Source: a virus. Taken from it: DNA of 64,000 nucleotides. This document shows positions 669 through 59,455 of this stretch, piece after piece. The number at the start of each line of letters is the position of its first letter. The stretch's first letter is position 1. Under the pieces are notes generated by a model. It did not search any database and was not told the origin of the DNA. It was given only the letters and a program-made list of their open reading frames with translations. The stretch is from IMG/VR virus record IMGVR_UViG_3300018080_000174, positions 3,412 to 67,411 of that record. One strand, written 5' to 3'. Position numbers and translations under genes: made by a program.

Positions 669-1260
669 GTTGGAATCCTCTTCTGATAAGTTCCACCACG
701 ACCAGAGCGTCGTGGACTGATGTGTGTTCGTCGCCGGGGATGTCTGCCGGGTCGAAACCCGCACGTCTGCAACACTCGTTCGTGTCGGGCAGGAATTCGT
801 CGCCGGGCCGCACGTACATACTGCCGGGATCAAGAATCCTGTGGTGCCACTGAATCGGCTCGGTCCCTCTGATCTTTTTCAGGAAGGGTGCGTCGAAGTG
901 GGCGAAGTTCTTACCCGATGCGACAAACTTCCGTGGATCAATGCCCCATGTCGAAAGCCAACCGGCGAACTTACGCGGGAACTCACACTCCAACCCGTAC
1001 CAATCCCGATGGAGCGTGTCCCCACTCGGGGCTTCACTACTGGTATTGCGAGGCTTAGTTGCTAAGTCCTTGAACAAGTCCCGGTGCATACTCAGTGCAT
1101 AGGGCTCGCCCGTGTAGACCTCACGACGAATGCGATACCGGAAGGTCGGCAGGTCGGCCAAATTGATGCCGGGGTTGCAGACGACTGCCCCGATCTCCAG
1201 CACCTCACAGCGGTCGGGGTTCAGGCCGGTCGTCTCGATGTCAATACTCACGAATCTCAT
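655..1260 (-). CDS. DEDDh 3'-5' exonuclease (DnaQ/oligoribonuclease-like)
   Basis: ExoI SIDIETTG, ExoII NFAHFD, ExoIII HTSVHDA; ATG 1260 overlaps HNH stop. Confidence 0.88.
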   Translation of the reverse strand: MRFVSIDIETTGLNPDRCEVLEIGAVVCNPGINLADLPTFRYRIRREVYTGEPYALSMHRDLFKDLATKPRNTSSEAPSGDTLHRDWYGLECEFPRKFAGWLSTWGIDPRKFVASGKNFAHFDAPFLKKIRGTEPIQWHHRILDPGSMYVRPGDEFLPDTNECCRRAGFDPADIPGDEHTSVHDALVVVELIRRGFQRVEN

Positions 1261-1733
1261 TGCGTTTGTCTCCAACGTTTTCCAGTTCGTATTCTCCAAA
1301 TTTGACTTGGGGTGGTATTAAATTGCTTGGCAAGTTTGCCGCTTCCTTCTGTCGAGGCACGTATGATTGCTACTTGTTCCAGCGTCAAGCGAGCCCGTGG
1401 GTTCTTACCGCCAACTACTCGCCGTTGTCGGCCTTTCTTTTTACAGTCTGCCATGTTATCTGCTTGTGAACCTAACCACAGATGCTCAGGATTGACACAG
1501 GAAGGGTTGTCGCAGGTGTGACACACTTTCAATAGTCCTGGGTCTATTTCGTAATGGAGTTTATACATTACGCGAGCGGCCACATACGATTTATCCTGAA
1601 TCGTTACTGTGCCACGGCCGCAACTATTATGCGCACCCTTCCAAAGCCAACAATCTACACCCTTCTCAACACGGGCGAGAAATCGTTTCTTAGTCGGCCC
1701 ATTTAATGATGGGATAGGTAAATGTGCCATCAC
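1257..1733 (-). CDS. HNH homing endonuclease (HNH_3 type) with C-terminal HTH
   Basis: DCWLWKG..., VCHTCDNPSCVNPEHLWLGSQADNMAD; lower GC than neighbours. Confidence 0.92.
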   Translation of the reverse strand: MMAHLPIPSLNGPTKKRFLARVEKGVDCWLWKGAHNSCGRGTVTIQDKSYVAARVMYKLHYEIDPGLLKVCHTCDNPSCVNPEHLWLGSQADNMADCKKKGRQRRVVGGKNPRARLTLEQVAIIRASTEGSGKLAKQFNTTPSQIWRIRTGKRWRQTQ

Positions 1734-2800
1734 ATTGCTTGATAGTAGTCGGGGCTTACGGATTTCAGGATCAGTCGGCCGCCCAGCACGTCGCTGTGCC
1801 GCTCGACCAGCGGGGTGATTACGACACCCTCGCGGCCTTTGAACTTGCAGTTGATGTCATCGGCATCGGCCATCGTCGTCGGGCCGCTGGTCAGCCCTTC
1901 CAAGAGGGTGGGGTCGAATGGACCTTCGTACAATACCGGCACCGTCTCGATGTCGAACAACTCACAGTAGGATTTCACCTCTGCCCAATCCAGGTACTCG
2001 CCGTTGACCGAAATGTCAAACACGCGGTAGCCCTTGCCCTTCACCGTGCCGTAGTCCATCTTCTGGACGCCTTGGCCGTAAATCTCACCGAACACGATGG
2101 TATCATACGCTCCATTGATGGAGATAAAATCCAACATCGCTTTCATGTCGTCCGTCAGCGGAGTCCAGTAAACAGAATTCTCACCCTTCACCCGGCGATA
2201 GTGCGTACCGCACATGAACTCCGGCCCGTTATCTCGGACATAGCCGACTCGCGAGTTCGTACCGTGCAGCTTCTCAGTGATCCGCACCGGAAGGCGGTTG
2301 GGGATTGCGTTGGCGTTTCGATAGTAGTGCTGGATGCTGGTATACTTGTGGAACGCCCCAGGCTGACGCATGGTGTCCCCACCGCCCTTGAACTGCACAG
2401 GCGGTTGGTACTTCACGGCTTGGAACAGATCAGTGGCATCGTCCCCTACCTCAACCTTCCGGTCGCCCAGCATCTCGGCCACGTACTCGTTGTCGAGCGG
2501 CAGGCCAAAGCCGAACGACGCTGCGCTCCGCAAGCGGATTGCACCAATGCGGCACTGCGTCTTGACGAACTCGCCCGGCATGACCGCGTGTTTGAGGTAC
2601 GTGTCTACGCCCAACGCCTTCGCCACATCCTCCGGGATGAGCATATCAGGCGGGAAGTACACAACGAGATCGTTCGCCTTTAGATTTCCCTTCTGAGTGA
2701 TGAACTGCGTGTTCAGCACCTTGGCGATGTCGAGCTTATCCGCGTTCGGATGGGGCTCCACTCGGGTTACTCGGACGATTTCAACAGGTGTGTCGCTCAT
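1730..2800 (-). CDS. ATP-dependent RNA ligase, DRB0094/Rnl2-like, with N-terminal OB fold
   Basis: N-terminal HPNADKL OB fold; motif I TEKLHGTN, FGEIYG, VFDI, REGVV, LKSVS. Confidence 0.9.
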   Translation of the reverse strand: MSDTPVEIVRVTRVEPHPNADKLDIAKVLNTQFITQKGNLKANDLVVYFPPDMLIPEDVAKALGVDTYLKHAVMPGEFVKTQCRIGAIRLRSAASFGFGLPLDNEYVAEMLGDRKVEVGDDATDLFQAVKYQPPVQFKGGGDTMRQPGAFHKYTSIQHYYRNANAIPNRLPVRITEKLHGTNSRVGYVRDNGPEFMCGTHYRRVKGENSVYWTPLTDDMKAMLDFISINGAYDTIVFGEIYGQGVQKMDYGTVKGKGYRVFDISVNGEYLDWAEVKSYCELFDIETVPVLYEGPFDPTLLEGLTSGPTTMADADDINCKFKGREGVVITPLVERHSDVLGGRLILKSVSPDYYQAM

Positions 2801-4653
2801 AGTTCGCTCGCAAAAATGGGTTTCTTGTTGCCTTTGAGTTGCTCGTGATTGTCGATGATGTACTCCATCGCCTTCTCGAAGTGTGCGGGCTCCTCCGTGT
2901 CGAAGAGAGCCTCTTTCAAATCGACCGCCGCCAGCTTAGCCTTCTGCTTCGCCAAGAAGTCTGGGTCGGTCGCCATCTTAACGCACAAGTCGATGAATTG
3001 TGGGGCCGTAGTCGCAATCAAGTTGTCCAGGCCCACCCGCCGCAGCAACGCACTGGCAGCGAGGTTGTAGAAGCGGTCGCCCTCCAACGTCACCACCGGC
3101 TTGCCCAGGTAGAGGGCCTCTACCACCGTGTTGTAACCGCCGAAGGGATACGAGTTGATTGCGAAGTCGCCGTACTCAGCTTCCTCCATGTATTCCATGT
3201 ACTCCTTGTCCGCGTGCAAGACGCCTGAGTCACCTAGAAGTCGCGACATGTCAGCGACGAACGGCAGGAAGGCGTTGTACCGATGCACTCCCCGGCTGGC
3301 GAAGATCGCGTACTCCAACTCGGGAGCTTGTTTCGTGATCTCGTTCAACACCCGCAGCATCGTGTAATTGTACTTGTCTGGACCCCAGACACAGTTGGCG
3401 ACGACCTTATCCGTCTTCTTCTCCGGGAACTTCGCCTCATACCTTGGCCATGTCGGGACGCAACCCAAGCCGGGCAGGACGATGGGCGTTTCGGAGTAGT
3501 TCTTGTCCAGGTTGGCAAGGTCTTCCGTCTCCTCACCTACGACGAAGTAGTCGATCTCGCCGCCGAAGGTGCTGACGGGGTGGCCATATCCAGTGACTTG
3601 GATGGGAGCCAGCCGCATGTTGCTGAGCCAAACCGATTCGTCCGTCATCCCGATGTCGGGGAAGAACGCGAGTTGATAATCGTTGTCGCCTACGGCGTCG
3701 AGGTTGAGGTTGTTGATTCCACCATCCTGCCCCTGTAGCTGCGCCCGGTACACGTTGTCGAAGTAATCGGTCGCCAACGCTACTGGCTCGTGCATCCCGA
3801 CATGCAGAAGGTCCATGCGGTACCGCTTGCGGAACCGGTCTAGGAAGGGGAAGTAACTCTTGTAGACCGCACTGTGATCGAACCACTTCGAGGTGACGAT
3901 CAATATACTGTCCCTGGCGGGCGTGTTTGTGATCTGCAAGTTCACGTCCTGGAGCTTCTTCTTACACCCGGCGTTGATCTGCTCTTTCACCGGCCGATCA
4001 TTCCGCCCTTTTCCGGCGAAGTAGGTGCAGGAGAAGTACGGCACCGACACACGATAGTCGGCTGGCACGTAGGCTGGATTCAGTTTTTCAAAGTGGTGTC
4101 GCAGGTTGGCTTGGTGGTGCGGCTTGACACAGCCAATGGTTGGCAGTGGGAAGGTGAAGTACCACAAAGACGCAAGGTTGGGCTGCAACTCGAAGAACTT
4201 ATCGTAGTCAAGCTCCGTGTGATTTCGGGCCGAGTACAGGAAGAAAATCTTAACGATGTTGTCTTTCTGCGTTAGCACTTGCTTCAAGACCGAATCCGTC
4301 GTCTCGTAACTGGATAGTGCGACGAGATTCGCAAACAGGTGCGCCCGTGCCACAAACGTCGCTGCGTACTTCAGCGGGATTGTAAAATCAGGGTCGGAAA
4401 CTACGGTGAAGATCGCACTCACCAGTTCATTGATCCGATCCCGTGCCGTCTGGTCCAGGCCCCGGAAATTGTTCCGCTGGAAGTACAGCAGAAGTTCCAA
4501 AATGGCTTCGCAAATCGCGGTATGCTGCCCGCGATCCAACAGGCGGTAGAGCTTTCGTCGGAAAGTCTTCGGCAGATCAGTGGGGTTCTCACTGATCGAA
4601 AACGGGGCTCGATTCGGCGTCTTCTTCTTACGCTTTTTCCTTGTCATAATCAT
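2797..4653 (-). CDS. GT41-family protein glycosyltransferase (HMW1C N-glycosyltransferase/OGT-SPINDLY-like, no TPRs)
   Basis: HSAVYK, FPDIGM...MRLAPIQVTGYGHPVST, NSYPFGGYNTVVEALYLGKPVVTLEGD; helical N-terminal domain; start 4653 or 4647. Confidence 0.85.
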   Translation of the reverse strand: MIMTRKKRKKKTPNRAPFSISENPTDLPKTFRRKLYRLLDRGQHTAICEAILELLLYFQRNNFRGLDQTARDRINELVSAIFTVVSDPDFTIPLKYAATFVARAHLFANLVALSSYETTDSVLKQVLTQKDNIVKIFFLYSARNHTELDYDKFFELQPNLASLWYFTFPLPTIGCVKPHHQANLRHHFEKLNPAYVPADYRVSVPYFSCTYFAGKGRNDRPVKEQINAGCKKKLQDVNLQITNTPARDSILIVTSKWFDHSAVYKSYFPFLDRFRKRYRMDLLHVGMHEPVALATDYFDNVYRAQLQGQDGGINNLNLDAVGDNDYQLAFFPDIGMTDESVWLSNMRLAPIQVTGYGHPVSTFGGEIDYFVVGEETEDLANLDKNYSETPIVLPGLGCVPTWPRYEAKFPEKKTDKVVANCVWGPDKYNYTMLRVLNEITKQAPELEYAIFASRGVHRYNAFLPFVADMSRLLGDSGVLHADKEYMEYMEEAEYGDFAINSYPFGGYNTVVEALYLGKPVVTLEGDRFYNLAASALLRRVGLDNLIATTAPQFIDLCVKMATDPDFLAKQKAKLAAVDLKEALFDTEEPAHFEKAMEYIIDNHEQLKGNKKPIFASEL

Positions 4654-5788
4654 CCTCTGCGTATTCTCTGATTGCGTCTCCGTCCACGACCAACACTTCT
4701 TTGATCGACGGGTGATCGCGTTTGATTTCAGCGTAGATGTCAGCGGCCCGCCACCGGGTCGTGATGACGATAGTGTCAACGGGGTTGCCCCACAGGTTGT
4801 TAGGTGCTTCGATCAACTGCCCCGTGCCGGGCACATAGCGACCGGCTTTACGATGGTCGGAGTCAATGACTCGACATTCCTTGATGCCACAGGCGTTGAG
4901 GAAGGCTGCACCCTTGCCGGTACCGCCCCAGAATGCCATTGACTCACGAGTGGATATGACGAACTTCAACATGTCGCGAATTTCCGTGCAGTCGAACTTC
5001 CGAGGAATATCTGCGAAGGCGTGCCGATCTGGCCGACCCGTCCAAACAATGACCTCATCGTTGTAACTCTTGTAGACATCGACCGTGAACCAACCGGCTG
5101 ATTCCAGCATGGTGACGAAACTCGTCAACGTGAAGTTGCTGACGTGCTCGTACAGGAAGTCGCCAAACCTTCCGGCGGCAAGGGCTTTTTCAATGCACGG
5201 GACTTCGGCCAGGAACAGTGGGTGTGACTCGCGGGCATGGTAAGCCAACTCGGCGGCAAACTCGCGTGGTCGTTCCATGTGTTCCATCACATGGCGGCAG
5301 ACAAGCACGTCGGGCTTCATCTTGGCGATGTCCCGCTCGGGGATGAAGTAATCGGCGTATGTCTCCAACCCGTCAGCGACACAGGACTCGTGTTCAATGC
5401 CCGGCTCAAATGCGATGCACCGGTTTAGCAGATCGACCTTTTGGAGATATTTCAGGAACATCCCGTCCCCCGCTCCGATGTCCACGACCGTCATGTCACT
5501 CACAAAATGATCGTTACACAGACGTTGCACAACGCCTTTGATATGGGCGTCCCAACCCAGACCGTTGTTGAACATCAGGTTGGAATCCTCTTCGTAAGGA
5601 ATCCGTGCCACGTCAAAATCCACATTGAAAATGTGGCCACACATACGGCAGATATGGAAGTTCAGCGGGTACCGCACGGCCGCTTCCGACGCCGATTTAC
5701 TGTATGGCAGGTTCAACGCAGCAAGGGGCTGCGGTTCAGGTTGATAAAACGGCTCCAGCATGTGCGAGCCACAAGCTATGCAAGTCAT
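4628..5788 (-). CDS. SAM-dependent NDP-sugar C-methyltransferase-like protein (TcaB9/NovU-type architecture)
   Basis: Zn CxxC...CxxC, VDIGAGDG, RHVMEH, FLYEHVSNF, FWGGTGKG, DSDHRKAGRYVPGTG. Confidence 0.85.
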   Translation of the reverse strand: MTCIACGSHMLEPFYQPEPQPLAALNLPYSKSASEAAVRYPLNFHICRMCGHIFNVDFDVARIPYEEDSNLMFNNGLGWDAHIKGVVQRLCNDHFVSDMTVVDIGAGDGMFLKYLQKVDLLNRCIAFEPGIEHESCVADGLETYADYFIPERDIAKMKPDVLVCRHVMEHMERPREFAAELAYHARESHPLFLAEVPCIEKALAAGRFGDFLYEHVSNFTLTSFVTMLESAGWFTVDVYKSYNDEVIVWTGRPDRHAFADIPRKFDCTEIRDMLKFVISTRESMAFWGGTGKGAAFLNACGIKECRVIDSDHRKAGRYVPGTGQLIEAPNNLWGNPVDTIVITTRWRAADIYAEIKRDHPSIKEVLVVDGDAIREYAEDDYDKEKA

Positions 5789-5790
5789 GT

Positions 5791-6381
5791 CTACTCCTCA
5801 AAAGGCCCCGGTAATCTCTCTGATGTCGTGTCACCACCGAAGCGGTCCAACACTTCGTCCATACTGATCGGTCGCCACTCTCCGGTGAGTCGGTGGATGT
5901 AGTCGATGCCTACGTCCATCGCCCGGCGACCGGGGAACATGGCGTTCAACTCATTCTCATACCCGCCGTGCGAGTGACCATACAGATGGATACCACCGTG
6001 ATGCAGGCCATCCCACGACAATAGTGGGTAGTGGCACAGGTGAATCTTCACCCGATGCTCCCGCCCCGCAATACGAAACTTCCGATACAGCATATCGTTG
6101 AATGTCGAGCAAAAGCTGGCAAGGCTGGCTCGGTCGTGGTTGCCGCGCACAATGTGGAGTTGCCGTACATTCAGCCGGGCGCGGTAGTGACCGTACTTCG
6201 TCGCACGCCAGCCAAAGTCGCCCAGGAAGTAGAGCGTGTCATCCGGCCCGACCACGGCATTGATCCCGTCGATCAGGGCGGTGTCCATCGCCTCTACGCT
6301 GCCGAACGCCTCATCACGCTTCAACTGGTGCGTGAGGATGCCTTCGTGTCCGAAATGCCAATCTGCTGAAAACCAGATCAC
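5791..6381 (-). CDS. calcineurin-like metallophosphoesterase
   Basis: ADWHFGH, LGDF, GNHD, CHYP, GHSH motifs. Confidence 0.92.
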   Translation of the reverse strand: MIWFSADWHFGHEGILTHQLKRDEAFGSVEAMDTALIDGINAVVGPDDTLYFLGDFGWRATKYGHYRARLNVRQLHIVRGNHDRASLASFCSTFNDMLYRKFRIAGREHRVKIHLCHYPLLSWDGLHHGGIHLYGHSHGGYENELNAMFPGRRAMDVGIDYIHRLTGEWRPISMDEVLDRFGGDTTSERLPGPFEE

Positions 6382-7292
6382 CCTAGCAGCCTCCGGTTAC
6401 GGTCAATAATCTCTGCGATCTGTCTGAGGGTGTTGGTCGCGTCTTCTTCGAGCACCACGGCCCCTTCGAGCGACCCGTAGTGTTCCTCCAGGCACTCAAA
6501 GAGCAGTCGCTTGATAGCGACCTCATCAGGACCATACGGCAGGGAAGAATTCGCATAGACTCGCTCCAAGTGCCGCTCTTTGTCGGCGGCCCAGAGATAC
6601 ACGTCTTCCGCCGACATCTCGCCGCGACGAACCGCTTTAAGCTGTGCCTTATTCCGGCGCAGGTCAAGGTCGCCTTCCTCCAACAGTTGCTCCACCTCAC
6701 TCAACAGGCGGATAAGGTGATAAGCAAATTTCGTGTCGTACCCGAACTCGGCAACAATGGCTTCCCGCTTGCTGCCGGGCTCTGGCGTCTTCGTCTTCAT
6801 CTTGTGAAGCTGGTTGTAGGCGTACCCCTTGAACCGGTGCCACGCTCCCTTGTGCGGGAAGATATGCCGGGCGTCTCGCACCATGTTCGCTACCTTCGTG
6901 CTGTGCAGCACGCACTCTTGCGGCGTGTACAGCGATGACAGCATGTTGGGGTTGTTCTCCATGCACAGGTGGAAGTAGTGAACGATGTTGTAGACGTTCA
7001 GGTCGTAGGTCCGACCCCGGCCGCCCAGATCGGTTTCCACATGGACGTGGTGCTTCTGGTAGCAGACGAACTTCTGCTTCTGCCGCCCGAAGCCCTCGAT
7101 CTGACCCGCAAGGTGCGGGAACACGATGTCCTTGGGCGGGACGCAGAAACCAACCGTGTCGAAGTCCGACATGTCGGTACTCACGCCGTAGGCCACCGAG
7201 CCCATGACGGTTTCGTACATCACGTTCGACACCAGCCACGAAGGCGGCGTGATAAGCTGCATCTTCGTCAGTCTGTCAACCACGCTTGGCAT
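6378..7292 (-). CDS. Pol-beta-family nucleotidyltransferase (RlaP/YcgL-like)
   Basis: GSVAYG...SDFD signature; NNPN; YDTKFAYHLIRLL. Confidence 0.88.
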   Translation of the reverse strand: MPSVVDRLTKMQLITPPSWLVSNVMYETVMGSVAYGVSTDMSDFDTVGFCVPPKDIVFPHLAGQIEGFGRQKQKFVCYQKHHVHVETDLGGRGRTYDLNVYNIVHYFHLCMENNPNMLSSLYTPQECVLHSTKVANMVRDARHIFPHKGAWHRFKGYAYNQLHKMKTKTPEPGSKREAIVAEFGYDTKFAYHLIRLLSEVEQLLEEGDLDLRRNKAQLKAVRRGEMSAEDVYLWAADKERHLERVYANSSLPYGPDEVAIKRLLFECLEEHYGSLEGAVVLEEDATNTLRQIAEIIDRNRRLLG

Positions 7293-7516: not shown

Positions 7517-7806
7517 ACACCTCTGCCGAAGAACTTCGCCGTGCGGGTCCGCGTATGGTAGCGACCGCAGATTGAATCCGCAGCATCGTCAATCGACATC
7601 AGCTTGAGGGGGCTCAGCTTGAACGGGCTCGCCGGGTTCATTGGGCTCAGCGGGTTCAGCGGGTTCAGGGGATCACTCAGGATGTCGTCATCGTCGCGAT
7701 CCTGCACAGGGGCAGGGGTCGGTTCGTTCTGCTGTGGCCGTTCCGCACAGCCAAGGAACAGGATTGACAACAGGATCAACGCCACCACGATAAACAAAGC
7801 TCTCAT
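7510..7806 (-). CDS. putative lipoprotein
   Basis: Hydrophobic signal ending LFLG-C; NPL/NP repeats. Confidence 0.55.
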   Translation of the reverse strand: MRALFIVVALILLSILFLGCAERPQQNEPTPAPVQDRDDDDILSDPLNPLNPLSPMNPASPFKLSPLKLMSIDDAADSICGRYHTRTRTAKFFGRGVC

Positions 7807-7807
7807 G

Positions 7808-8173
7808 TCACTCTCCCAGGTTAATTGCTAGTTCGTTTACGCCGAGCAGGTCGCAAAGGTTGTCCATCAACCCTGCCTGCCGCAGCGTGACCTCTTCCAA
7901 AGCCAGCTTTTGCAGCAAGCCCTCTTCCTCGAAATGGACGCGAGTCCACTCCGACTCGCCGGGCTTCTTAAACGCGATCCGAAAGGCCGTGCCGTCTTCC
8001 AAAGCCTCTGCCAAATCCGCGTTGTGGCGGCTGGCCACGATAGCCTTATCGAGAATCTCAGCAAACGTCTGATTCCGTGCCAAGGCGTCTCCAAGCAGAT
8101 TGTCAAAGGCCGCCTTCACCAGTTCCTCAACCGTCAAGGTCTTACCGCCAGCCGTGATAGTAGGTTCACTCAT
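7808..8173 (-). CDS. hypothetical protein
   Basis: ORF with GGAG RBS; ATGA overlap. Confidence 0.7.
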   Translation of the reverse strand: MSEPTITAGGKTLTVEELVKAAFDNLLGDALARNQTFAEILDKAIVASRHNADLAEALEDGTAFRIAFKKPGESEWTRVHFEEEGLLQKLALEEVTLRQAGLMDNLCDLLGVNELAINLGE

Positions 8174-8361
8174 TCGCTTCTCCGATGTACTTCGATTCCA
8201 TCCAGGGTTTCAGTTATGTAGAGGTTAGGGTCTTTCCGACCCCACGGGCTCCTCCACGCTTCTAAGTGGGCGTCCCTCTCCTCGGGGGTGAGTTCCGCAT
8301 GGTCAAGCTGGAAGGTGATAGTGTCTGGCGTCTCGGTAACTGTGAACTCTCGGATCACCAT
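8170..8361 (-). CDS. hypothetical protein
   Basis: ORF directly downstream of a sigma70-type promoter. Confidence 0.6.
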   Translation of the reverse strand: MVIREFTVTETPDTITFQLDHAELTPEERDAHLEAWRSPWGRKDPNLYITETLDGIEVHRRSE

Positions 8362-8379
8362 TTCTCACCCTCTATCTTA

Positions 8380-8408
8380 ATCATACCACACAAATCAGGT
8401 GATGTCAA
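8380..8408 (-). promoter_or_regulatory. sigma70-type promoter
   Basis: TTGACA-17 bp-TATGAT on minus strand, about 20 nt before ATG 8361. Confidence 0.75.
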
Positions 8409-8538
8409 GAAAATCTTGCGTTTTGTTGTAAATTGACATGAGAATTCCCGGATCGACCCCGGCGTCCAGGGCATTCTCCAGCAAATTCTGTGCCAAACGG
8501 CCGATCAGTTTCAGTTCATCTTCGGTGAAATCAGGCAT
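8395..8538 (-). CDS. small hypothetical protein (47 aa)
   Basis: Manual translation MPDFTEDELKLIGRLAQNLLENALDAGVDPG...; TAATG coupling to upstream gene. Confidence 0.6.
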   Translation of the reverse strand: MPDFTEDELKLIGRLAQNLLENALDAGVDPGILMSIYNKTQDFLDIT

Positions 8539-8774
8539 TATTCAGGCTCCACTTGTTCCATGAGGGCTCGGCAAACAGGGACAATGATCTTTGCTTCAAC
8601 GTCCATCTCGGTCGTGCAGTCATACTCGACCGCCGCGATGACTTCGCCGTCTTCGCCGTCCACTTTGATAGTGCAGCGTGTCTTGCAAGGGTCGTCGGGA
8701 TGCGGGGCCAAGCTGATCCGCCCGTTGTGGCGGGCCAGGAAGTTCATACACTGGTACAAAGTTCCACAACTCAT
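8538..8774 (-). CDS. hypothetical protein
   Basis: ORF, AAGGAG RBS, ATGA overlap. Confidence 0.65.
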   Translation of the reverse strand: MSCGTLYQCMNFLARHNGRISLAPHPDDPCKTRCTIKVDGEDGEVIAAVEYDCTTEMDVEAKIIVPVCRALMEQVEPE

Positions 8775-9280
8775 TTCTTCACTCCTTCTGTTAGGTAACG
8801 AATTGCCTTTTTCAGTATGTTTGGACTGTCTTTTGCGTGACCAAGCAAAGAATTGCAGCTACGACACAGTAAACCGCGTACCTCACCAGTTGTGTGGCAA
8901 TGGTCCACATGAGGTGTACTTACAAAGAAGTCGCCGCAAATTGCACACTGGTCGTCTTGTTCATTTCGTAGCTGTTGATAGTCCTCAGGTGAAAGCCCGT
9001 AGTTTCTAATTACAGCTTGGAGATTTGAACAGACTTTGCACCAAGTATGTAAGCCTGATGTACTTAACCGATTTCTATGAAATTCAATGGCGGGTTTAGT
9101 CTGTTTGCAGCGGGAGCATTTGTGTGTCGCCACACTAACAGGGAAATTAGTGGCCTTACGGTAGGCTCTGCAACAGGTTTTACAGTAACCATTGATCCCG
9201 TCCTTCGCTGCGCGGTTTCTCCAAAACTCTTCGATGGGCTTTGTCTCCCGACACTTTGAACACCTCTTAGTCTTCGGCAT
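8771..9280 (-). CDS. endonuclease VII-family nuclease with two N-terminal Zn modules
   Basis: QCAIC...HVDHCHTTGEVRGLLCRSCNSLLG; two KxCSxC...CKxC repeats. Confidence 0.9.
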   Translation of the reverse strand: MPKTKRCSKCRETKPIEEFWRNRAAKDGINGYCKTCCRAYRKATNFPVSVATHKCSRCKQTKPAIEFHRNRLSTSGLHTWCKVCSNLQAVIRNYGLSPEDYQQLRNEQDDQCAICGDFFVSTPHVDHCHTTGEVRGLLCRSCNSLLGHAKDSPNILKKAIRYLTEGVKK

Positions 9281-11207
9281 CTTCGACCCCCAGCGTCGAG
9301 GTGACATCACCCATCGTCATCAGTTCCAGGCGGCGATTGTCTTTCAGAATATCACGAACCCGCTCGTCTGTCGGGAGGTGGATCAGGTCTACGATGGTCG
9401 CGCCCAAGTTCTCATCTGTCCCCATGCGGTGAATCCGATCTTCCGCCTGAACTCGCGATTCGGGATTGAAGTCGTTACTGTAGAAGACCGCCATGCGGCT
9501 CTCAGTCAGAGTCAGACCCATCCCGCCCGACATCGGGTGGGCAGCGAACACGACCCGTTGGTTATTGTGTACGTCGGCCCAGTACGCCAGCGGATCAGCC
9601 TGGTGCAGCGGTTTGCCATTCATGTCGTACACTTTCCAGCCACGACCGTCAACCCGCACGACCGCCCACTTCTGTTTCTGACAGAGCTTGACCACCCGGT
9701 CCAAAGACCCGGTGAAACCAGCGAACACCACCAGCCGACCCTGATCCTCATTCTCATCCAGCAGTTCGACCAGTGCCTTGTCTTTCGGGCAGGGGACTTC
9801 ACGTACTGTTCGGACCTTGTGCGGAACTTCCGCCGTGCCGTCACAGGTTGGGCAATCGACCAACTGTTTCTCCAGCGTGTCCACGTACTCTTGATCCAGC
9901 ATGTCTATCATCTCGAACGTGCGATCTGGATCGAGCGGGTCGCACCAAATCTGCGTCTTGCCGGGCGTGTCGCTCGCGGCACAAACGGGGCAGGGATCGG
10001 TGCCGTCGATTTCCTCGCGGTATTGGAAGCCGTCGCTAAGTTCGCGTAAGGACGTGAGGCCGGTGATCGCATTCGGGGCGATCTTGACAAGAGCCTTCGC
10101 TACGCGATTAGTTGTGGGCGAAGGCTCACAGCGTACCGTGCGATACTGCTTCTCAGGAAGGTCGAGGCAGTCTTTCTTATGAAGTACAAGTACGAGCCCT
10201 TCCAGACGCTCATGCAGATACGAGACTTCATTCTCGCTGGCTTCCCACTTGTGGTAGTCGTCGGCAAACAAGTCTGGGTTGTGCTGCTCCTCATCCGGGT
10301 ACCCGCCACAGACGGCGCACTTAGCTTCGTCGTCCAACCATGTTACCCGCTGCCAGTGCTTACCTTGCGAAGTCTCCTTCTGCACGAAGACGCCGAGCCG
10401 CCATTCAAACGACTTCATATCGCCTTCCTTTAGGAAGCCGGGTGCGGCGATCTCACACTGACTCCACCAATCGACGGGCGACTTGGGCGACGGCGTGCCA
10501 GACATCTCAATCACAAAACCGTCGTTGCCGTAAGCCTCTCGGATTCCATCGGCAAGAGCTTGGGCCGCTTCCGACCGCTTCGCCCGGTGATTCTTCAAAC
10601 GGCTGGACTCGTCAAAGATGACACCGTGCGGCGGCATCTCGCCGGGCACCCAGTTCTTCATCTTCGTTCGGAGGGCCTCATACGTCATCAACTTCAAGTC
10701 GATGCCGGTCAGACCCCACTTCTGAAATTCCCTCTCGACCGCTTTCAGACCGGACTTGGGGCCAACCCACCACCAGTCCGTCTGGCCCGACTTCTCCATG
10801 ATCTCAATAGCGGACAGTGTTTTACCGGTACCCATCTCGGCCGCGAGGATGCAATACTGATAGGTAAGCCCGAAGTCCGACATCAGCCTTTGATGCTGAC
10901 GGAGTGGGCGTTCATACTCGTGCTCCACGAGAGGCTTTTCCCACCGGGCGTAAGGATTCCTACCCTGCATAAAGTCAAGCTGGAACCGATTCCGTGTGCA
11001 ATCTTTGACAGACCAGATTTTGCGTGGGTTGTTATCGTCGTACCCATGCCACCGAGAACCCGCCATCGACTTAATATCGTCCTTCAAGGCGAACGGGCTC
11101 TTGAGGAATTCGATGCGCCCTTTCACCGTTTGAATGGTGGTGGGCACCTTCTTCAAATTTCCAGCCCGCGTCTCAGTGATGAGGTAAATCGTTTCTGGCT
11201 CTGCCAT
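9267..11207 (-). CDS. SNF2-related superfamily 2 helicase
   Basis: AEMGTGKT, FDESS, SGTP, SGGMGLTL, QAEDRIHRMG. Confidence 0.92.
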   Translation of the reverse strand: MAEPETIYLITETRAGNLKKVPTTIQTVKGRIEFLKSPFALKDDIKSMAGSRWHGYDDNNPRKIWSVKDCTRNRFQLDFMQGRNPYARWEKPLVEHEYERPLRQHQRLMSDFGLTYQYCILAAEMGTGKTLSAIEIMEKSGQTDWWWVGPKSGLKAVEREFQKWGLTGIDLKLMTYEALRTKMKNWVPGEMPPHGVIFDESSRLKNHRAKRSEAAQALADGIREAYGNDGFVIEMSGTPSPKSPVDWWSQCEIAAPGFLKEGDMKSFEWRLGVFVQKETSQGKHWQRVTWLDDEAKCAVCGGYPDEEQHNPDLFADDYHKWEASENEVSYLHERLEGLVLVLHKKDCLDLPEKQYRTVRCEPSPTTNRVAKALVKIAPNAITGLTSLRELSDGFQYREEIDGTDPCPVCAASDTPGKTQIWCDPLDPDRTFEMIDMLDQEYVDTLEKQLVDCPTCDGTAEVPHKVRTVREVPCPKDKALVELLDENEDQGRLVVFAGFTGSLDRVVKLCQKQKWAVVRVDGRGWKVYDMNGKPLHQADPLAYWADVHNNQRVVFAAHPMSGGMGLTLTESRMAVFYSNDFNPESRVQAEDRIHRMGTDENLGATIVDLIHLPTDERVRDILKDNRRLELMTMGDVTSTLGVEDAED

Positions 11208-11395
11208 CAGAAGTCTACTTTCAATCGGTTTGTGATTCCTGTAATGTCGTCAACAAGACGATACCGCAAGTCTCGAAGTCGTGGTCGGCCTTGGACGAAG
11301 TTCTTGGCCTTCTTGGCTTTCGTGAATTCTCTTGGCACCCCTTTGGCTGAGGCGATGACGGTCGGCACGTTATCCGGGAAAACAAGCAAGTACAT
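11207..11395 (-). CDS. small basic hypothetical protein
   Basis: ORF coupled (TGATG) to helicase. Confidence 0.6.
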   Translation of the reverse strand: MYLLVFPDNVPTVIASAKGVPREFTKAKKAKNFVQGRPRLRDLRYRLVDDITGITNRLKVDF

Positions 11396-11398
11396 ATC

Positions 11399-11923
11399 TC
11401 AACCTTCCAGAAGCAGGAAGGTGCTATCAGGCTGATCGGCCATGCGAACTCCGTCAAACATCCCGCGCAGGCCCTCTTCAAGTAGCAGTCGGTACATCGA
11501 GTTGTAGGCTTGCCTGACCGTCAAGGCAGTGTTAGTCTGACAAGCTAGTGTGATCGCCCGCTGCCACTGAGCCAGGGTGCCGCACAGGATCGCTGCCTGA
11601 ACTCCGCGTTGGAGGGATTCAGTCACTACGCTTTCAATCCCCCGCGCAGCTTCTAAGATGTCAACCATGTCTCGCTCGTCGGACGCGATTAGGAAGCCCA
11701 CCTGGAAAAGACCTAAGTATGGGCGAGCGAACCGCACTGTTGCAGGGGCTCGTTCATCTTTGAACGCCGCGATGCACGCCAACTGATGAGCAAGCTCTTG
11801 TAGCGGGATGGAAGACGCATCAGCCTCTTTCGCCAAACCGTAGCCCAGCAGTTGCCGGGCCAGCGGTAGGAGGACGTTGAGGTCTACCTTGGGTTTCATC
11901 ACTAAAGCTACGCCAGGAGTCAT
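11399..11923 (-). CDS. hypothetical protein (possible degenerate ThyX-like fold)
   Basis: AILCGTLAQWQRAI loosely resembles ThyX C-terminal strand-helix; no RHR motif. Confidence 0.55.
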   Translation of the reverse strand: MTPGVALVMKPKVDLNVLLPLARQLLGYGLAKEADASSIPLQELAHQLACIAAFKDERAPATVRFARPYLGLFQVGFLIASDERDMVDILEAARGIESVVTESLQRGVQAAILCGTLAQWQRAITLACQTNTALTVRQAYNSMYRLLLEEGLRGMFDGVRMADQPDSTFLLLEG

Positions 11924-12327
11924 TCAGCGGCCTCATCTTCGTCAAGGTCGTCCGCAAGATTGCCAATCCACAGTGCGTCAAAATTCTGCATCGCTTCCTC
12001 TGGGAACTCGCCGTAGGCTTCGACGCCAGACTGTCCGAGAGCGCTGTCGGGGAGGTACTCCCTGTATGCTTCACCAGCGACACCATACGAGCAGACCCAT
12101 CGCATCCCATCATGGTAGACGACTACCGGATACATTCTGCTCGGCCGGAATTGCTGCATTACCAGCCGCTTCTCATATTCAGCGGCGTCGGCCCTCGCAC
12201 GGGCTTCCATGATCTGGAGTGTTTGCAGTGCTTGCTCCGTGGTCAAACTTTCAAGCAAGCCCATTGGCTGGGTCGCACCTTCAACTCGTTTGATCGGATC
12301 AGGGACGTAAGATTCAGACGTGTCCAT
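11920..12327 (-). CDS. hypothetical protein
   Basis: ORF with overlaps at both ends. Confidence 0.7.
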   Translation of the reverse strand: MDTSESYVPDPIKRVEGATQPMGLLESLTTEQALQTLQIMEARARADAAEYEKRLVMQQFRPSRMYPVVVYHDGMRWVCSYGVAGEAYREYLPDSALGQSGVEAYGEFPEEAMQNFDALWIGNLADDLDEDEAAE

Positions 12328-12524: not shown

Positions 12525-12546
12525 CGTATTTCTCCTAAAGGGTTAG

Positions 12547-12619
12547 CAGCGCGACGGGGAATTGAACCCCGGTGACGGGCCTGAAAAACCCGCGTCCTAG
12601 TCCACTAGACGACCGAGCC
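12547..12619 (-). tRNA. trnE: tRNA-Glu(TTC)
   Basis: GGCTCGG acceptor (pairs TCGCGCT, one mismatch), D arm GTCTAGTGGACTAGGAC, anticodon arm CGGGT-TTTTCAG-GCCCG, T arm CGGGG-TTCAATT-CCCCG; followed by CTA rather than CCA. Confidence 0.88.
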
Positions 12620-18286: not shown

Positions 18287-18463
18287 ATGTACAAGATCAC
18301 CATCTCTCGAAGCGTTGAACGTGAGGGCTCGGTAGTTTTGGCAACACAAGTCGCCGTCTTGTACAAACCGGAGATTCCAGATGACATAGATGACATCGTT
18401 GACGACTACGACGGTGATTTCTATGAGATTGAGTACCCCGATGAAGGAGATTACGATGAGTGA
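18287..18463 (+). CDS. small acidic hypothetical protein
   Basis: ORF with D/E-rich C-terminus; GAGG RBS. Confidence 0.55.
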   Translation: MYKITISRSVEREGSVVLATQVAVLYKPEIPDDIDDIVDDYDGDFYEIEYPDEGDYDE

Positions 18464-18923
18464 GAAGTTGGAGTTTGCAGTAGGTGATGTCAACAGTAAG
18501 GAACGTGGCACCGGCGCACGGGCGAACACAGGGAAGATTTCCTTCTCTCTGGTGCCTATTCATTTGCTGGCGGGAGCGGCTCGCGTATTCATGGGCGGCC
18601 TGCTGAAATACTCAGCCTTCAACTGGGCTCGCGGCATGGCGTGGTCCGTGTGTTATGACAGCTACATGCGTCACTGGATCAAGTGGTGGTGGATGGGCGA
18701 AGATTTTGATACGGAGTCGGGCGAGCATCATCTTGACCACTGTATTGCCAATCTACTCTTCCTGCGACACTACGTTGATTCCTACCCAGAGGGGGACGAC
18801 CGCCCGTGCCAGGATTTGACTGAGTTCCGTCAATCGTTTGACCACTTTGTCAAGACATTCGACCGCGATGAATACTTGCAACGTAACCCCGAAATTGCTG
18901 AGAAGGTGAAGAACGATGGCTAA
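18456..18923 (+). CDS. DUF5664-family dATP/dGTP diphosphohydrolase-like protein
   Basis: GK..FSLVP, GLLKYSAFNWARG, GEDFDTESGEHHLDHCIANLLFL. Confidence 0.85.
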   Translation: MSEKLEFAVGDVNSKERGTGARANTGKISFSLVPIHLLAGAARVFMGGLLKYSAFNWARGMAWSVCYDSYMRHWIKWWWMGEDFDTESGEHHLDHCIANLLFLRHYVDSYPEGDDRPCQDLTEFRQSFDHFVKTFDRDEYLQRNPEIAEKVKNDG

Positions 18924-19185
18924 CAAAGAGACAGTACGACGTTTCATTGCAGCGGCCGTGTGCGATTTCGTGGGCCATCTGGACAGCTTAGATAGCCCCA
19001 TTATCGTGGGCGGCTCATACCCGAAGGACCGGCTTATCGAGCAATTACAACGCTGGTGCGAGTCACGAAACTTCAACGTGGCCGACGCCGACGCTGTGGG
19101 CTGGACGGTAGCCTGCCAAACGGGGTCATTAAAGACGCCCGGCCCTATGCCTGCAAAAGAAGGAGAGACTGATGCCAGCACCTAA
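18916..19185 (+). CDS. hypothetical protein
   Basis: ORF overlapping both neighbours. Confidence 0.6.
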   Translation: MANKETVRRFIAAAVCDFVGHLDSLDSPIIVGGSYPKDRLIEQLQRWCESRNFNVADADAVGWTVACQTGSLKTPGPMPAKEGETDAST

Positions 19186-19789
19186 TAGCCTAATCAACAT
19201 GGATGGTCACATGCTAGTGGCTGTCGATGTGGAGACAACGGGGAGAGTCTCGGGATACCACGAGATGATTCAGATTGCAGTCGTCCCGCTTACCAGCGAC
19301 ATCAAGCCCGTGCCAGACATCAACCCCTTCTATATGGAAATCGCCCCGGAATACCCGGAGCGTTGTGAATCAAATGCGGCGACTGTGCATGGGTTGGACA
19401 TTGCGGATTTGATGCACTCCGCACCGGATGCTTGGAAGATTGCGGACCTGTTTGATGAATGGTTTGAAAATCTCAACCTGCCGTTTAATCGGCGTCTGAT
19501 CCCGCTGGCTCATAACTGGGCTTTTGAGCGGGGCTTTCTCGTACACTGGTTGGGGATTGAATCGTTCAATCAGTTCTTCCACTTCCACCCGCGAGACACC
19601 ATGCTGTTCGCTCTGAGTATCAATGACGCTGCGACCTATCGCGGGTTGAAGACTCCTTTCCCGTATGTGGGCCTCGCAGCGATGTGCAAACGCTTTGGTA
19701 TTGATCGCGGGAAGGCACACGATGCTTTGTGCGATGCCCTCGCAACAGCCAAGCTGTACAAAACGATGCTCGACACTTTCGCCCGGTGA
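19172..19789 (+). CDS. DEDDh 3'-5' exonuclease (DnaQ/RNase T-like)
   Basis: AVDVETTG, AHNWAFE, AHDALCDA. Confidence 0.88.
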   Translation: MPAPNSLINMDGHMLVAVDVETTGRVSGYHEMIQIAVVPLTSDIKPVPDINPFYMEIAPEYPERCESNAATVHGLDIADLMHSAPDAWKIADLFDEWFENLNLPFNRRLIPLAHNWAFERGFLVHWLGIESFNQFFHFHPRDTMLFALSINDAATYRGLKTPFPYVGLAAMCKRFGIDRGKAHDALCDALATAKLYKTMLDTFAR

Positions 19790-24546: not shown

Positions 24547-25911
24547 TCAAGCCAACACTGCCACAACCGAACTCGTCAGATTGAGAGTCGATCCAGACGG
24601 CATCTCCTCTAGCAACACGCCTTCAAATTCAAGGCCGATGGTCCAACTGCGGCCACATGCCCCGCCACTATCTTGCACCGCACTCTCCGTGGGCGTAGTG
24701 ATGATTCCAACCCACTGCCGTCCTTCCCAGTCGATTAACCCAACCTCTTTCCCAAGATAGTTCTTGAGGAAGTCTTGGAGATCGTCCACTTCTGTCTTCT
24801 TCAAGCCGGAGAAACTCAGGACGAGCGTATTCACCTGCGGCCATGTGGGGTCGGCAAATACGATGAGCTTACCACCGCGAGTCTCCCGATTGATTCGAGT
24901 GAATCCCAACCTCTCACGATTATCCAGGTTTGGAGCCCGCAGTTCCACCGTGTCAGTCGGTGCGCCAATTCCTGGGTAGAGAAATTGAAAGCGTTCACCC
25001 GCAGGTAAGCCTTGTACGAAGGGTTCTTCCGAGTCTGGAGGCGTAGGGTTGCCCGACGCCGTACTCTCACCAATATAAGGTGTATAGGATTTCTTGCCAC
25101 ACGGGTCTACCACATGGTAGGTCAAAGAATGACCAATATCCAAATCCTGGGTGATCGACCGCGACCAATCGGCTGCCAGCACCACATTCTGTTGGAAATC
25201 AATCGCTCCCACCTCCAAGCCACGGGTCTTTCCGTAGTTGGTTGACTGTGCGAGGTTGAGCGTCGAAGTTGGCGTCTCACTTCGGTACGCTTCTTGTGTG
25301 AACGTGATGTTCGAGGTCACTGATTCCTCAAAAGGTCGCCCCGCCCAGTGTTGGAATAGAATCTCGTGCGAAGCCGACAAGTTCTTCTCGGAATTAGGAT
25401 ACGCAGCGTCACTGTTGAGATTCATTACTGAAGTGACGAACAGGTAGTGCGGGGCAACTACCCCCACTGTCTGTGTCAGGTTCATCTGCGAATCGGTGAC
25501 TTGCAGAAGTCCGCTAGTGACTACCTCTTGTGTGAAGTTAAGCGTACTGGAGAGTACCGCACTTTCGCCAATTCCTAAAACTTCCAATCCTTGGCTTGCC
25601 AACGACATGTTGGATGAAAGGCTAAGCTCTTGTGTACGACTCAATACTTGGGTGAAGTTGATGGTACTACTTAACGACTCTGTCAGATTGAGCTTACCCG
25701 TAGCATTGTGCGTCAAAGCCATATTTGACGTAGCATAAACCGGTTGCTCGTTGACATGCCCATCTTGCGTCAGAGCCATGTTTGAAGTGAGTGACTCCTC
25801 AAACACGCTGGCCGTCTCAGCAAGCACCTCCACGTACTGACGAGCAAGCCGCGCCTCGCCACCACCGGTGCCTAATACTTCGCCATATTGCCTTGTAACT
25901 CGAAGTGTCAT
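24547..25911 (-). CDS. minor tail protein (Ser/Thr/Asn repeats plus Dit-like C-domain)
   Basis: Repeats of S(T/N)(L/M/I)N(F/L)TQ; C-terminus similar to 24144..24527. Confidence 0.6.
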   Translation of the reverse strand: MTLRVTRQYGEVLGTGGGEARLARQYVEVLAETASVFEESLTSNMALTQDGHVNEQPVYATSNMALTHNATGKLNLTESLSSTINFTQVLSRTQELSLSSNMSLASQGLEVLGIGESAVLSSTLNFTQEVVTSGLLQVTDSQMNLTQTVGVVAPHYLFVTSVMNLNSDAAYPNSEKNLSASHEILFQHWAGRPFEESVTSNITFTQEAYRSETPTSTLNLAQSTNYGKTRGLEVGAIDFQQNVVLAADWSRSITQDLDIGHSLTYHVVDPCGKKSYTPYIGESTASGNPTPPDSEEPFVQGLPAGERFQFLYPGIGAPTDTVELRAPNLDNRERLGFTRINRETRGGKLIVFADPTWPQVNTLVLSFSGLKKTEVDDLQDFLKNYLGKEVGLIDWEGRQWVGIITTPTESAVQDSGGACGRSWTIGLEFEGVLLEEMPSGSTLNLTSSVVAVLA

Positions 25912-26975
25912 TAGCCTACCTTCACACCAGCTTGGAGATTGTTGACATCAGAAGTCGTCCACGCATTCGTTGTCACTGGGTTTTCTTCCAACAACCGACT
26001 CAAGGCCACCCAATCATCGGTGGCCACAACCTGCCCCGAGTCTGCATCTTCGGTGGTGCTATGTTTTACGACGGTTTCAATGGTCCAGTTATTAGGCTCA
26101 GTCGTGATGAATTCGGAAACCACGTTTACCGCAATGGGGTCAGCAATGTTTACAACAGGCAGACTCTCATACTCATAGAGGTCAGTGTTGTTAGTAGTTG
26201 TGTCCTCCACATACTCTGCCGAATTCTGCTCATCTTCATCTACCAGAGTATAGTGAGTGTTCCCAGTGCTCGTCGTCCAATCCGAAGAATCGCCATCGGC
26301 GTTTGGACTCAGTGTGACGACGCGGATATTAGGCCCGATAAAATCGTTGTTCTCGCTACCCGTGCCGTCACAGATGTAGAGATCATCAATTTGGGCCGAA
26401 TAGTCATCGCCAGTGCTAACAACACCATTGAATCGAACTACGCTGTGGTAGTTATCCGTGCCATACTTTGTGTCAACGCTTGTGGCCGAAAGCACGTCCA
26501 CCCCGTCAATCCGCATCTCATACGTTCCTGCGGAATCATGGCAGTAGACTTTGAGTTCAAAGTAGTGCCATGCATTCTCGGTGACAATCGAGTTCGCAGT
26601 CGAACCCAGCAGCGTCGGACCCCGATACAGATGGATGGCCTCATTAGCATCAATAGTCGCCCAGATGCCACCTGTCGTGTCATTTTGAGCGTTGGTCGCT
26701 GACCGCATTTGAATAAATTCACCCGTCCCATGAGAGGACGGAATTTTCAAGGCGAAGCCAACAATTAACGTACTGTCCGTCGTCAAGTGAGGCGTTTGAA
26801 TCCAAGCGTTTGCGTCCCAGGCCACGGTGATAGCATAATCGCCCCATCGCCCAGTCTTGACAAAGGCACGATTTTGCCGCTGCTGCCAACGAGTCCGCAT
26901 GATACCCAGAGGCGCAGCTTGCGACCCTGTGGTCGTTCCGTACTTATCAAACCCATCCATAAAGAGCAAGGCCAT
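25911..26975 (-). CDS. minor tail protein, ConA/LamG-like, paralog 1
   Basis: MALLFMDGFD; WHYFELKV...IDG; IDDLYICDG. Confidence 0.65.
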   Translation of the reverse strand: MALLFMDGFDKYGTTTGSQAAPLGIMRTRWQQRQNRAFVKTGRWGDYAITVAWDANAWIQTPHLTTDSTLIVGFALKIPSSHGTGEFIQMRSATNAQNDTTGGIWATIDANEAIHLYRGPTLLGSTANSIVTENAWHYFELKVYCHDSAGTYEMRIDGVDVLSATSVDTKYGTDNYHSVVRFNGVVSTGDDYSAQIDDLYICDGTGSENNDFIGPNIRVVTLSPNADGDSSDWTTSTGNTHYTLVDEDEQNSAEYVEDTTTNNTDLYEYESLPVVNIADPIAVNVVSEFITTEPNNWTIETVVKHSTTEDADSGQVVATDDWVALSRLLEENPVTTNAWTTSDVNNLQAGVKVG

Positions 26976-28009: not shown

Positions 28010-28024
28010 CGTAGCACCTTGTCT

Positions 28025-28065
28025 TAAAAAGAGCCCTGGCGCGAGAAATCCCGCGCCAAGGCTCA
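28025..28065 (-). terminator. putative terminator/attenuator hairpin
   Basis: GAGCCTTGGCGCG...CGCGCCAGGGCTC followed by TTTTT. Confidence 0.6.
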
Positions 28066-28078
28066 CCGAGGGAGAGAC

Positions 28079-59427: not shown

Positions 59428-59455
59428 AGTATACACCACTGGGCGCGAAAGTCAA
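59428..59455 (-). promoter_or_regulatory. sigma70-type promoter TTGACT-16-TATACT
   Basis: TTGACTTTCGCGC...TGTATACT. Confidence 0.7.

Follow-up and report, generated by a model that had tools for sequence, protein, structure and literature searches.

A putative protein glycosylation cassette in an uncultured tailed phage lineage, related to planctomycete flagellar loci

Why does a tailed phage carry, as two overlapping genes, a glycosyltransferase resembling those that act on bacterial proteins and a methyltransferase resembling those that build branched sugars? The question is raised by a stretch of 64,000 nucleotides (the window), which comprises bases 3412-67411 of the 67,411-base IMG/VR virus record IMGVR_UViG_3300018080_000174; the annotation is confined to the window, and CheckV puts the completeness of the record at 62%. 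On the minus strand of the window lie the gene of a 616-amino-acid (aa) glycosyltransferase (2797-4647, P0006) and, directly upstream of it, the gene of a 386-aa methyltransferase dependent on S-adenosylmethionine (SAM) (4628-5788, P0002). The original prediction, made from the letters alone, was that the phage makes a methyl-branched sugar and attaches it to virion or host proteins, where it might serve as a shield, an adhesin stabiliser or an anti-defence modification. The answer that we favour, and that we regard as fairly probable, is a protein glycosylation cassette of flagellin-island ancestry, whose methylated sugar is derived from precursors of the host.

The contig is that of a genuine tailed phage, as had been supposed. 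The window encodes a tape measure protein (28588-32880), a major head protein (36341-37759), a portal (39680-41491) and a large terminase (41504-43171), and it has a replication block with a helicase, a ParB-like protein and a primase. Regarding its relatives among known phages, the large terminase has at most 26% identity to the terminases of cultured phages, and a blastn search of the region against 50,697 GenBank phage records gave no match. In the same records tblastn found no relative of the glycosyltransferase at an E-value of 1e-5, and for the methyltransferase there were only three matches, at about 20% identity and all in uncultured phages. The PHROGs database gave no family match for either protein.

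The two genes had been described as overlapping. An overlap of about 150 nt results from the longest open reading frame (ORF) of the glycosyltransferase (2797-4779, minus strand), which begins at a TTG at 4779. The most likely start, judging from the sequence, is the ATG at 4647, which has GAGGA 6 nt upstream and at which the 616-aa protein entry P0006 begins as well. Since the stop codon of the methyltransferase gene is at 4628-4630, direct reading of the sequence gives an overlap of 20 nt (4628-4647, minus strand); the overlap itself is therefore real, although much shorter than that of the longest ORF. An overlap of this size suggests that the translation of the two genes may be coupled.

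The assignment of the glycosyltransferase to the HMW1C-like GT41 enzymes was confirmed by sequence searches and by structure prediction. The Pfam family PF13844 (Glyco_transf_41) matched with 41.3 bits against a cutoff of 25, in a match that covers residues 546-630 only, and the precomputed PF13844 label is present on most of the homologues. With phmmer, residues 161-606 matched AaNGT (E 1e-23) and ApHMW1C (E 6.6e-22) in the PDB, and a profile made from 24 homologues reached an E-value of 5.6e-55 in the same database. Furthermore, the ten best Foldseek matches of the AlphaFold2 model (pLDDT 90.7, pTM 0.88) were chains of AaNGT or ApNGT, with E-values from 5e-31 to 5e-29 and template-modelling (TM) scores of 0.74-0.78 across the whole length, the helical N-terminal domain included. 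OGT and SPINDLY ranked next, with a TM score of about 0.5. The N-terminal third of the model is all helical and has no tetratricopeptide repeats, in agreement with what had been predicted; its helices span approximately residues 30-234 according to DSSP and are followed by the GT-B domain. The GT41 motifs named beforehand are in place as well: PDIGM at 3660-3646, RLAPIQ at 3615-3598, GHPVST at 3585-3568, PFGGYNT at 3147-3127 and EALYLGKPVV at 3120-3091.

Regarding the residues behind this fold, the roles of those of AaNGT were taken from PMC10507012, and they were mapped onto the phage protein by sequence alignment only. In the pairwise alignment the pyrophosphate-binding Lys440 pairs with the K of WGPDK, Asn520 with the N of GGYNT, and Gly369 and His370 with the GHP motif; Tyr500 is kept and Asp524 is replaced by Glu. 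Across the 24 homologues K425, N506, T507, G355, H356 and P357 of the phage protein are invariant. A GT-B fold with the pyrophosphate Lys and with a C-terminal G-x-N/T-T-x-x-D/E nucleotide-sugar loop was found, so that the nucleotide-sugar core is kept and the nucleotide-sugar site is predicted to be live.

The residues that recognise the acceptor and the donor tell a different story. According to the same paper (PMC10507012), Arg177, His214 and Asp215 of AaNGT read the Ser/Thr at position +2 of the N-X-S/T sequon, and the R177A and D215A mutants are inactive. In the pairwise alignment Arg177 pairs with a Thr of the phage protein and His214 and Asp215 fall in a gap, while in the profile alignment the three positions are poorly conserved and are not Arg, His or Asp in the phage family. 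The sugar contacts His276 and Ser277 are Ser and Ala in the phage protein, and the uracil contacts His494 and Ser495 are Asp and Lys. Because neither the sequon readers nor the glucose and uracil contacts are kept, the enzyme has the HMW1C-like fold but is not an NGT orthologue; its donor probably differs from uridine diphosphate (UDP)-glucose, and its acceptor motif probably differs from that of NGT. Overall identity to ApNGT and AaNGT is 17-20%, the NCBIfam NGT equivalog model NF049992 gave 101.6 bits against its curated cutoff of 1000, and the phage gene is paired with a methyltransferase gene and has no adhesin gene next to it. An NGT-like specificity for N-X-S/T, which had been part of the proposal, is thus unlikely, and no protein of the window is rich in sequons.

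The methyltransferase was confirmed, again by profiles and a predicted fold, as being of the MtmC/TylC3/TcaB9/KijD1 type, that is, the 3-C-methyltransferases of nucleoside diphosphate (NDP)-sugars; the TcaB9-like architecture recognised beforehand was therefore read correctly. Pfam gave Methyltransf_23 (PF13489) with 46.4 bits and Methyltransf_14 (PF08484) with 26.6 bits against a cutoff of 23.5, whereas the zinc-binding Methyltransf_13 (PF08421) stayed below its cutoff (19.5 against 31.3 bits). The profile of the family matched MtmC (4rv9, E 2.3e-23), TcaB9 (3e-19) and KijD1 (1e-17) in the PDB over nearly the full length (positions 2-355), and the top 18 Foldseek ranks listed for the model (pLDDT 90.4) were all MtmC, KijD1 or TcaB9. 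The protein begins with a zinc module of four cysteines, continues with a SAM domain of the Rossmann type and ends in the C-methyltransferase (NDP-binding) domain. In a set of 24 homologues the cysteines (C3, C6, C47 and C50) do not vary, and H170, E214 and H215 are likewise invariant. The last three align with His181, Glu224 and His225 of TcaB9, which, together with Tyr222, we take to be active-site residues, going by the titles of PDB entries for mutant structures. Nevertheless, identity to the characterised enzymes is 18-21%, the phage gene lies outside any deoxysugar cluster, and the global TM scores to MtmC, TcaB9 and KijD1 are 0.53-0.56 with a large root-mean-square deviation, which probably reflects a different orientation of the domains in the model.

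Linkage of the two genes in relatives was borne out. A pattern scan of IMG/VR with the alignment of 24 glycosyltransferase sequences gave 35 viral loci, and the relatives of the cassette are all metagenomic. A relative of the methyltransferase gene stands directly upstream of the glycosyltransferase gene, on the same strand, in 33 of the 35; the exceptions (L031 and L037) are the two most distant matches. Being repeated in so many loci, the adjacency is beyond chance. Furthermore, the glycosyltransferase and methyltransferase trees give the same three viral subclades.

The phages that bear the cassette have a set of replication genes in common, among them those of the helicase, of ParB and of a 430-aa metallophosphoesterase, and hence they form one lineage. 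In order to see the cassette against this background, IMG/VR was scanned with the helicase (9267-11207 in the window, minus strand, phrog_62), which is a conserved marker of the lineage and one border of the slot where the cassette lies. A relative was found in 331 contigs, of which the best 80 were kept, and 46 of these had at least 6 kb downstream. Both genes were present in 19 of the 46 and neither in 27, and there was no locus with only one of them; these counts are inflated by shared ancestry, as the cassette-bearing contigs are the closest relatives of the helicase. Where the cassette is missing, the metallophosphoesterase closely follows the helicase. The two genes therefore behave as one accessory cassette, gained and lost together, and the slot that they occupy in the replication module is a variable one.

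In six of the relatives (L011, L015, L016, L021, L023 and L036) the GT41 gene is immediately followed by another, divergent GT41 paralogue, and in L011 a GT4-type (Glycos_transf_1) transferase gene comes after that of the helicase; these additional genes lie at 3304-4479 and 9721-11361 in L011 and at 9770-11365 in L015. Such extra transferases would fit a module that builds a glycan.

Regarding the origin of the cassette, prokaryotic genomes, one for each species, were scanned and gave 80 loci with a relative of the glycosyltransferase. The closest belong to Pirellulales, Thermoguttaceae and Planctomycetaceae (35-40% identity) and include chromosomes of 4.2 and 7.5 Mb. Among their neighbours Pfam identified FliD, FliS and giant flagellins with both Flagellin_N and Flagellin_C, which are 900-1070 aa long. 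By tblastn, flagellin, FliD or FliS lies within 8 kb of the glycosyltransferase gene in 10 of the 80 loci (L039-L046, L048 and L049). Nine of these are among the 11 closest loci (L038-L048) and the tenth, L049, is a Melainabacteria contig; no flagellar gene was found in the flank of L038. The methyltransferase is present in seven of the loci L038-L046 and L048, directly upstream of the glycosyltransferase in L038-L041 and nearby on the opposite strand in L042, L044 and L048. The usual planctomycete order is flagellin, methyltransferase (where present), glycosyltransferase, FliD, FliS. In one of the loci (L039) a 983-aa ORF looked like a fusion of the two enzymes, but it was rejected because the tblastn matches are in different frames and the ORF is over-long.

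The trees agree with this neighbourhood. The 35 viral rows of the glycosyltransferase tree form one clade with eight rows from flagellar loci and three others (SH-aLRT 88), apart from 45 mostly chromosomal rows that have other neighbours. In the methyltransferase tree the clade of the window, the copies from L038-L041, three of which adjoin flagellar genes, and a second viral clade join with a support of 98. Both trees are quick searches, unrooted and without an outgroup, and the direction of transfer is not readable from them. Thus, on sequence evidence, both genes of the cassette are kin to copies in planctomycete flagellar loci, a lead that was absent from the original prediction. Since the closest bacterial relatives adjoin planctomycete flagellin genes, the phage probably captured a flagellin-type protein glycosylation module. 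The host of this uncultured siphovirus lineage is probably a member of the Planctomycetota.

The more distant chromosomal relatives of the glycosyltransferase (about 33% identity) are without the methyltransferase and have other neighbours. A PKMT-like protein lysine methyltransferase adjoins them in six loci (944-2533 in L059 and five others) and a DUF3467 protein in ten (2374-3093 in L057 and nine others), and these neighbourhoods may be another context of protein modification; BBP7 porins and di-haem peroxidases are also found nearby. In some Planctomycetota genomes the glycosyltransferase family is expanded: one Pirellulales metagenome-assembled genome, which is L038, has tandem copies (7581-9758 and 9941-12229), and a contig of 5.18 Mb has four paralogues (P0092, P0106, P0115 and P0123) and two relatives of the methyltransferase (P0225 and P0228).

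How might the cassette work? In a first step the methyltransferase would use SAM to methylate an NDP-sugar made by the host and, by analogy with MtmC, TcaB9 and KijD1, the site would be C-3 of an NDP-4-keto-6-deoxyhexose. In a second step the GT41 enzyme, translated from the overlapping start, would transfer the methylated sugar to a protein in the cytoplasm, with the acceptor held in the groove between the helical N-terminal domain and the GT-B domain. Because both genes share ancestry with the planctomycete flagellin-fliD-fliS cassette, the ancestral acceptor was most likely flagellin, probably modified on Ser/Thr or on a site other than N-X-S/T. Sequons are fewer than expected in the central domains of the planctomycete flagellins. 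In the phage the acceptor could be the flagellin or another surface protein of the host, with receptor conversion or superinfection exclusion as the outcome, or a virion protein or a cytoplasmic protein of the host. The most specific version, in which planctomycete phages captured the flagellin cassette of their hosts and, during infection or carriage, use it to put a methyl-branched sugar on the flagellar filament or on some other protein of the host surface, seems to us possible, although doubtful.

The supply of the sugar is the part of the original prediction that had to be given up in its literal form. Neither a 4,6-dehydratase nor a ketoreductase nor a sugar nucleotidyltransferase was found by Pfam and/or PHROGs among the 55 ORFs of the window, which makes up all but 3411 bases of a record that is itself 62% complete, and the flagellar-locus neighbours that were scanned were likewise without a dehydratase, reductase or sugar nucleotidyltransferase. 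The phage would thus not make a methyl-branched sugar alone. The known relatives of the methyltransferase act on 4-keto-deoxyhexoses bound to thymidine diphosphate (TDP), as PMC10269268 describes for MtmC. As the window has no other enzyme of such a pathway, the host would have to supply the precursor and carry out any subsequent reduction.

Several observations weigh against a glycosylation cassette of flagellin ancestry. The missing pathway enzymes are one of them, all the more since a C-methylated 4-keto sugar normally needs a reduction step, which the cassette does not include. Where TcaB9 has Tyr222, the phage methyltransferase aligns with Leu212, which is immediately followed by an invariant Tyr. 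The support for the joint viral and flagellar glycosyltransferase clade is moderate (SH-aLRT 88-91, in a quick search), and the link to flagellar loci is guilt by association in metagenome-assembled genomes. Regarding the acceptor, the window was searched by tblastn with eight planctomycete flagellins, for which the E-value was 0.04 at best, and with flagellin termini, FliD and FliS, for which no match had an E-value under 0.2; the highest z-score for N-X-S/T enrichment among the 55 ORFs was 2.5, which is within chance. Furthermore, no integrase was found among the ORFs scanned, and for a lytic phage a modified flagellin is of little benefit. Finally, the cassette lies amid replication and RNA-repair genes, outside the structural operon, which argues weakly against virion proteins as acceptors and leaves room for a nucleic acid or another target.

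This last point leads to the alternatives. That the cassette decorates capsid, tail or fibre proteins of the phage itself, for stability, adhesion or masking, was the lead idea of the original prediction. We consider it rather unlikely, although it does have a rationale: fibrous adhesins are cytoplasmic substrates of HMW1C-type enzymes (PMC3012730 and PMC10507012), and virion glycosylation by phage-encoded transferases is mentioned in the mycobacteriophage literature. The window also encodes large uncharacterised proteins that might serve, among them proteins of 850 and 996 aa and three paralogues with DUF6923 repeats. However, no candidate rich in sequons, and none specific to the window and rich in Ser/Thr, stood out among the window proteins, the slot is one of replication and accessory genes and not a late structural operon, 27 of the 46 related phages with enough flank do without the cassette, and its closest bacterial relatives belong to flagellar loci. 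The same kinship counts against host takeover or counter-defence, where the glycosyltransferase would mark a cytoplasmic host protein (of defence, translation or regulation) and so inactivate or redirect it, with a methyl sugar that resists removal. This we hold to be improbable, as any host target would be hypothetical and both genes are still close to their flagellar-locus copies. What speaks for it is that GT41 enzymes act on folded or unfolded proteins in the cytoplasm, that the acceptor-reading residues differ from those of NGT, and that the accessory cassette has an RNA ligase, a phosphoesterase and an RlaP nucleotidyltransferase in the same variable slot, which, going by T4 Pnk/Rnl, look like genes of counter-defence by tRNA repair. 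Nevertheless, these RNA-repair genes are not obligatory partners. In the helicase survey (best 80 of 331 contigs) the RNA ligase and the phosphoesterase occurred only in cassette-bearing contigs, but one cassette-bearing subclade of 15 loci is without both, except for an RNA ligase in L007.

Still less probable, indeed very unlikely in our judgement, is an acceptor that is not a protein, such as phage DNA, RNA or tRNA, a small molecule or a lipid-linked glycan. Neighbours of DNA and RNA metabolism (helicase, endonuclease VII, RNA ligase and primase) would suit it, the changed sugar and uracil contacts are compatible with it, and a MazZ-like domain at 18390-18923 hints at manipulation of the nucleotide pool. 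It is the fold of the glycosyltransferase that makes this unlikely: the match extends over the whole length of protein N-glycosyltransferases, the peptide-binding helical domain included, and the next-best folds, OGT and SPINDLY, are likewise protein glycosyltransferases. To our knowledge, the characterised GT41 enzymes (NGT, OGT and the SPINDLY structures) all modify proteins in the cytoplasm. Besides, the ORFs scanned included neither a hydroxymethylase nor any other gene for the modification of bases, and here too the bacterial relatives are in flagellar loci.

A protein glycosylation cassette derived from flagellar loci has its nearest described counterpart in the flagellin glycosylation islands of Enterobacteriaceae, where, according to PMC4875605, an AdoMet methyltransferase domain is fused to most of the GT41 enzymes. 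A GT41 enzyme and a SAM methyltransferase function stand beside flagellin there as in the planctomycete relatives, whereas the methyltransferase is here an enzyme of its own, with three domains and of the C-methyltransferase type. In the phage the cassette is without flagellar neighbours, and there is no flagellar gene in the window. Among phages, virion glycosylation in mycobacteriophages and O-antigen seroconversion are similar in that accessory phage genes add sugars to proteins or receptor structures. However, the mycobacteriophage virion transferases are not known to be GT41 enzymes and are encoded by the structural genes, and O-antigen conversion takes place in the periplasm, on glycans that are linked to lipids.

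As to novelty, our literature search found no description of the pair, or of an HMW1C-like enzyme in a phage, but only virome tallies of carbohydrate-active enzymes and work on flagellar glycans as receptors; phage-encoded flagellin glycosylation was not found either. Together with the GenBank searches above, this agrees with the earlier impression that the pair has not been characterised in a phage. The cassette is at once a set of phage accessory glycosylation genes and a divergent branch of GT41. HMW1C-type enzymes are used as tools of glycoengineering, and the phage glycosyltransferase belongs to a deep and well-sampled branch of their fold, in which the surface that reads the acceptor is a different one and the nucleotide-sugar donor probably differs too. 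Because this branch is paired with a C-methyltransferase-like enzyme, the cassette is a candidate source of new protein glycosylation chemistry. Its tie to flagellar loci of Planctomycetota also gives a testable hypothesis on how these little-studied phages interact with a surface organelle of their hosts, and it predicts that the giant planctomycete flagellins carry a methylated sugar. If this is true, re-decoration of the flagellum would be a protein-level counterpart of O-antigen seroconversion, changing the phage receptor, and it would be the first phage-encoded glycosylation of flagellin, or of any protein, by a GT41 enzyme, with new acceptor and donor specificities in that family.

Regarding the surroundings of the cassette, the RNA ligase gene lies downstream (1730-2800, minus strand). 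It matches PF09414 and the PHA02142 OB (oligonucleotide/oligosaccharide-binding) domain, and its score for TIGR02306, 147.6 bits, is just below the cutoff of 151; it is of the DRB0094 type. Upstream are the phosphoesterase gene (5791-6381, minus strand; phrog_547, with a weak Metallophos_2 match) and the gene of the RlaP-type nucleotidyltransferase (6378-7292, minus strand; PF10127, 'RNA repair pathway DNA polymerase beta family'). Around the cassette these three resemble an RNA or tRNA repair set, and in many relatives the RNA ligase occupies the accessory slot together with the cassette; we treat the three as context and not as parts of the glycosylation module. A weak HNH match below the Pfam cutoff (1257-1733, minus strand) stands beside the RNA ligase, and a gene of a GIY-YIG domain protein lies at 59452-60126 (minus strand); both genes may be homing endonucleases. 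The endonuclease VII gene is at 8771-9310 (minus strand), and a single tRNA-Glu (anticodon TTC; 12546-12619, minus strand) lies amid the replication genes.

The MazZ-like domain belongs to PF18909, the N-terminal domain of a dATP/dGTP diphosphohydrolase (86.8 bits; 18390-18923, plus strand), and the protein, which adjoins an RNase T-type exonuclease (19172-19789), may act on the deoxynucleoside triphosphate pool or in the making of a modified base. The three DUF6923-repeat paralogues are in tandem upstream of the terminase (46887-48032, 48039-49169 and 49394-50527, all on the minus strand), and two of them also match phrog_34644. They are followed by large proteins without a family match, of 548 aa (51992-53638) and 850 aa (54681-57233). 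In the tail module there is an adjacent pair of phrog_2448 paralogues (25911-26975 and 26975-28066, minus strand).

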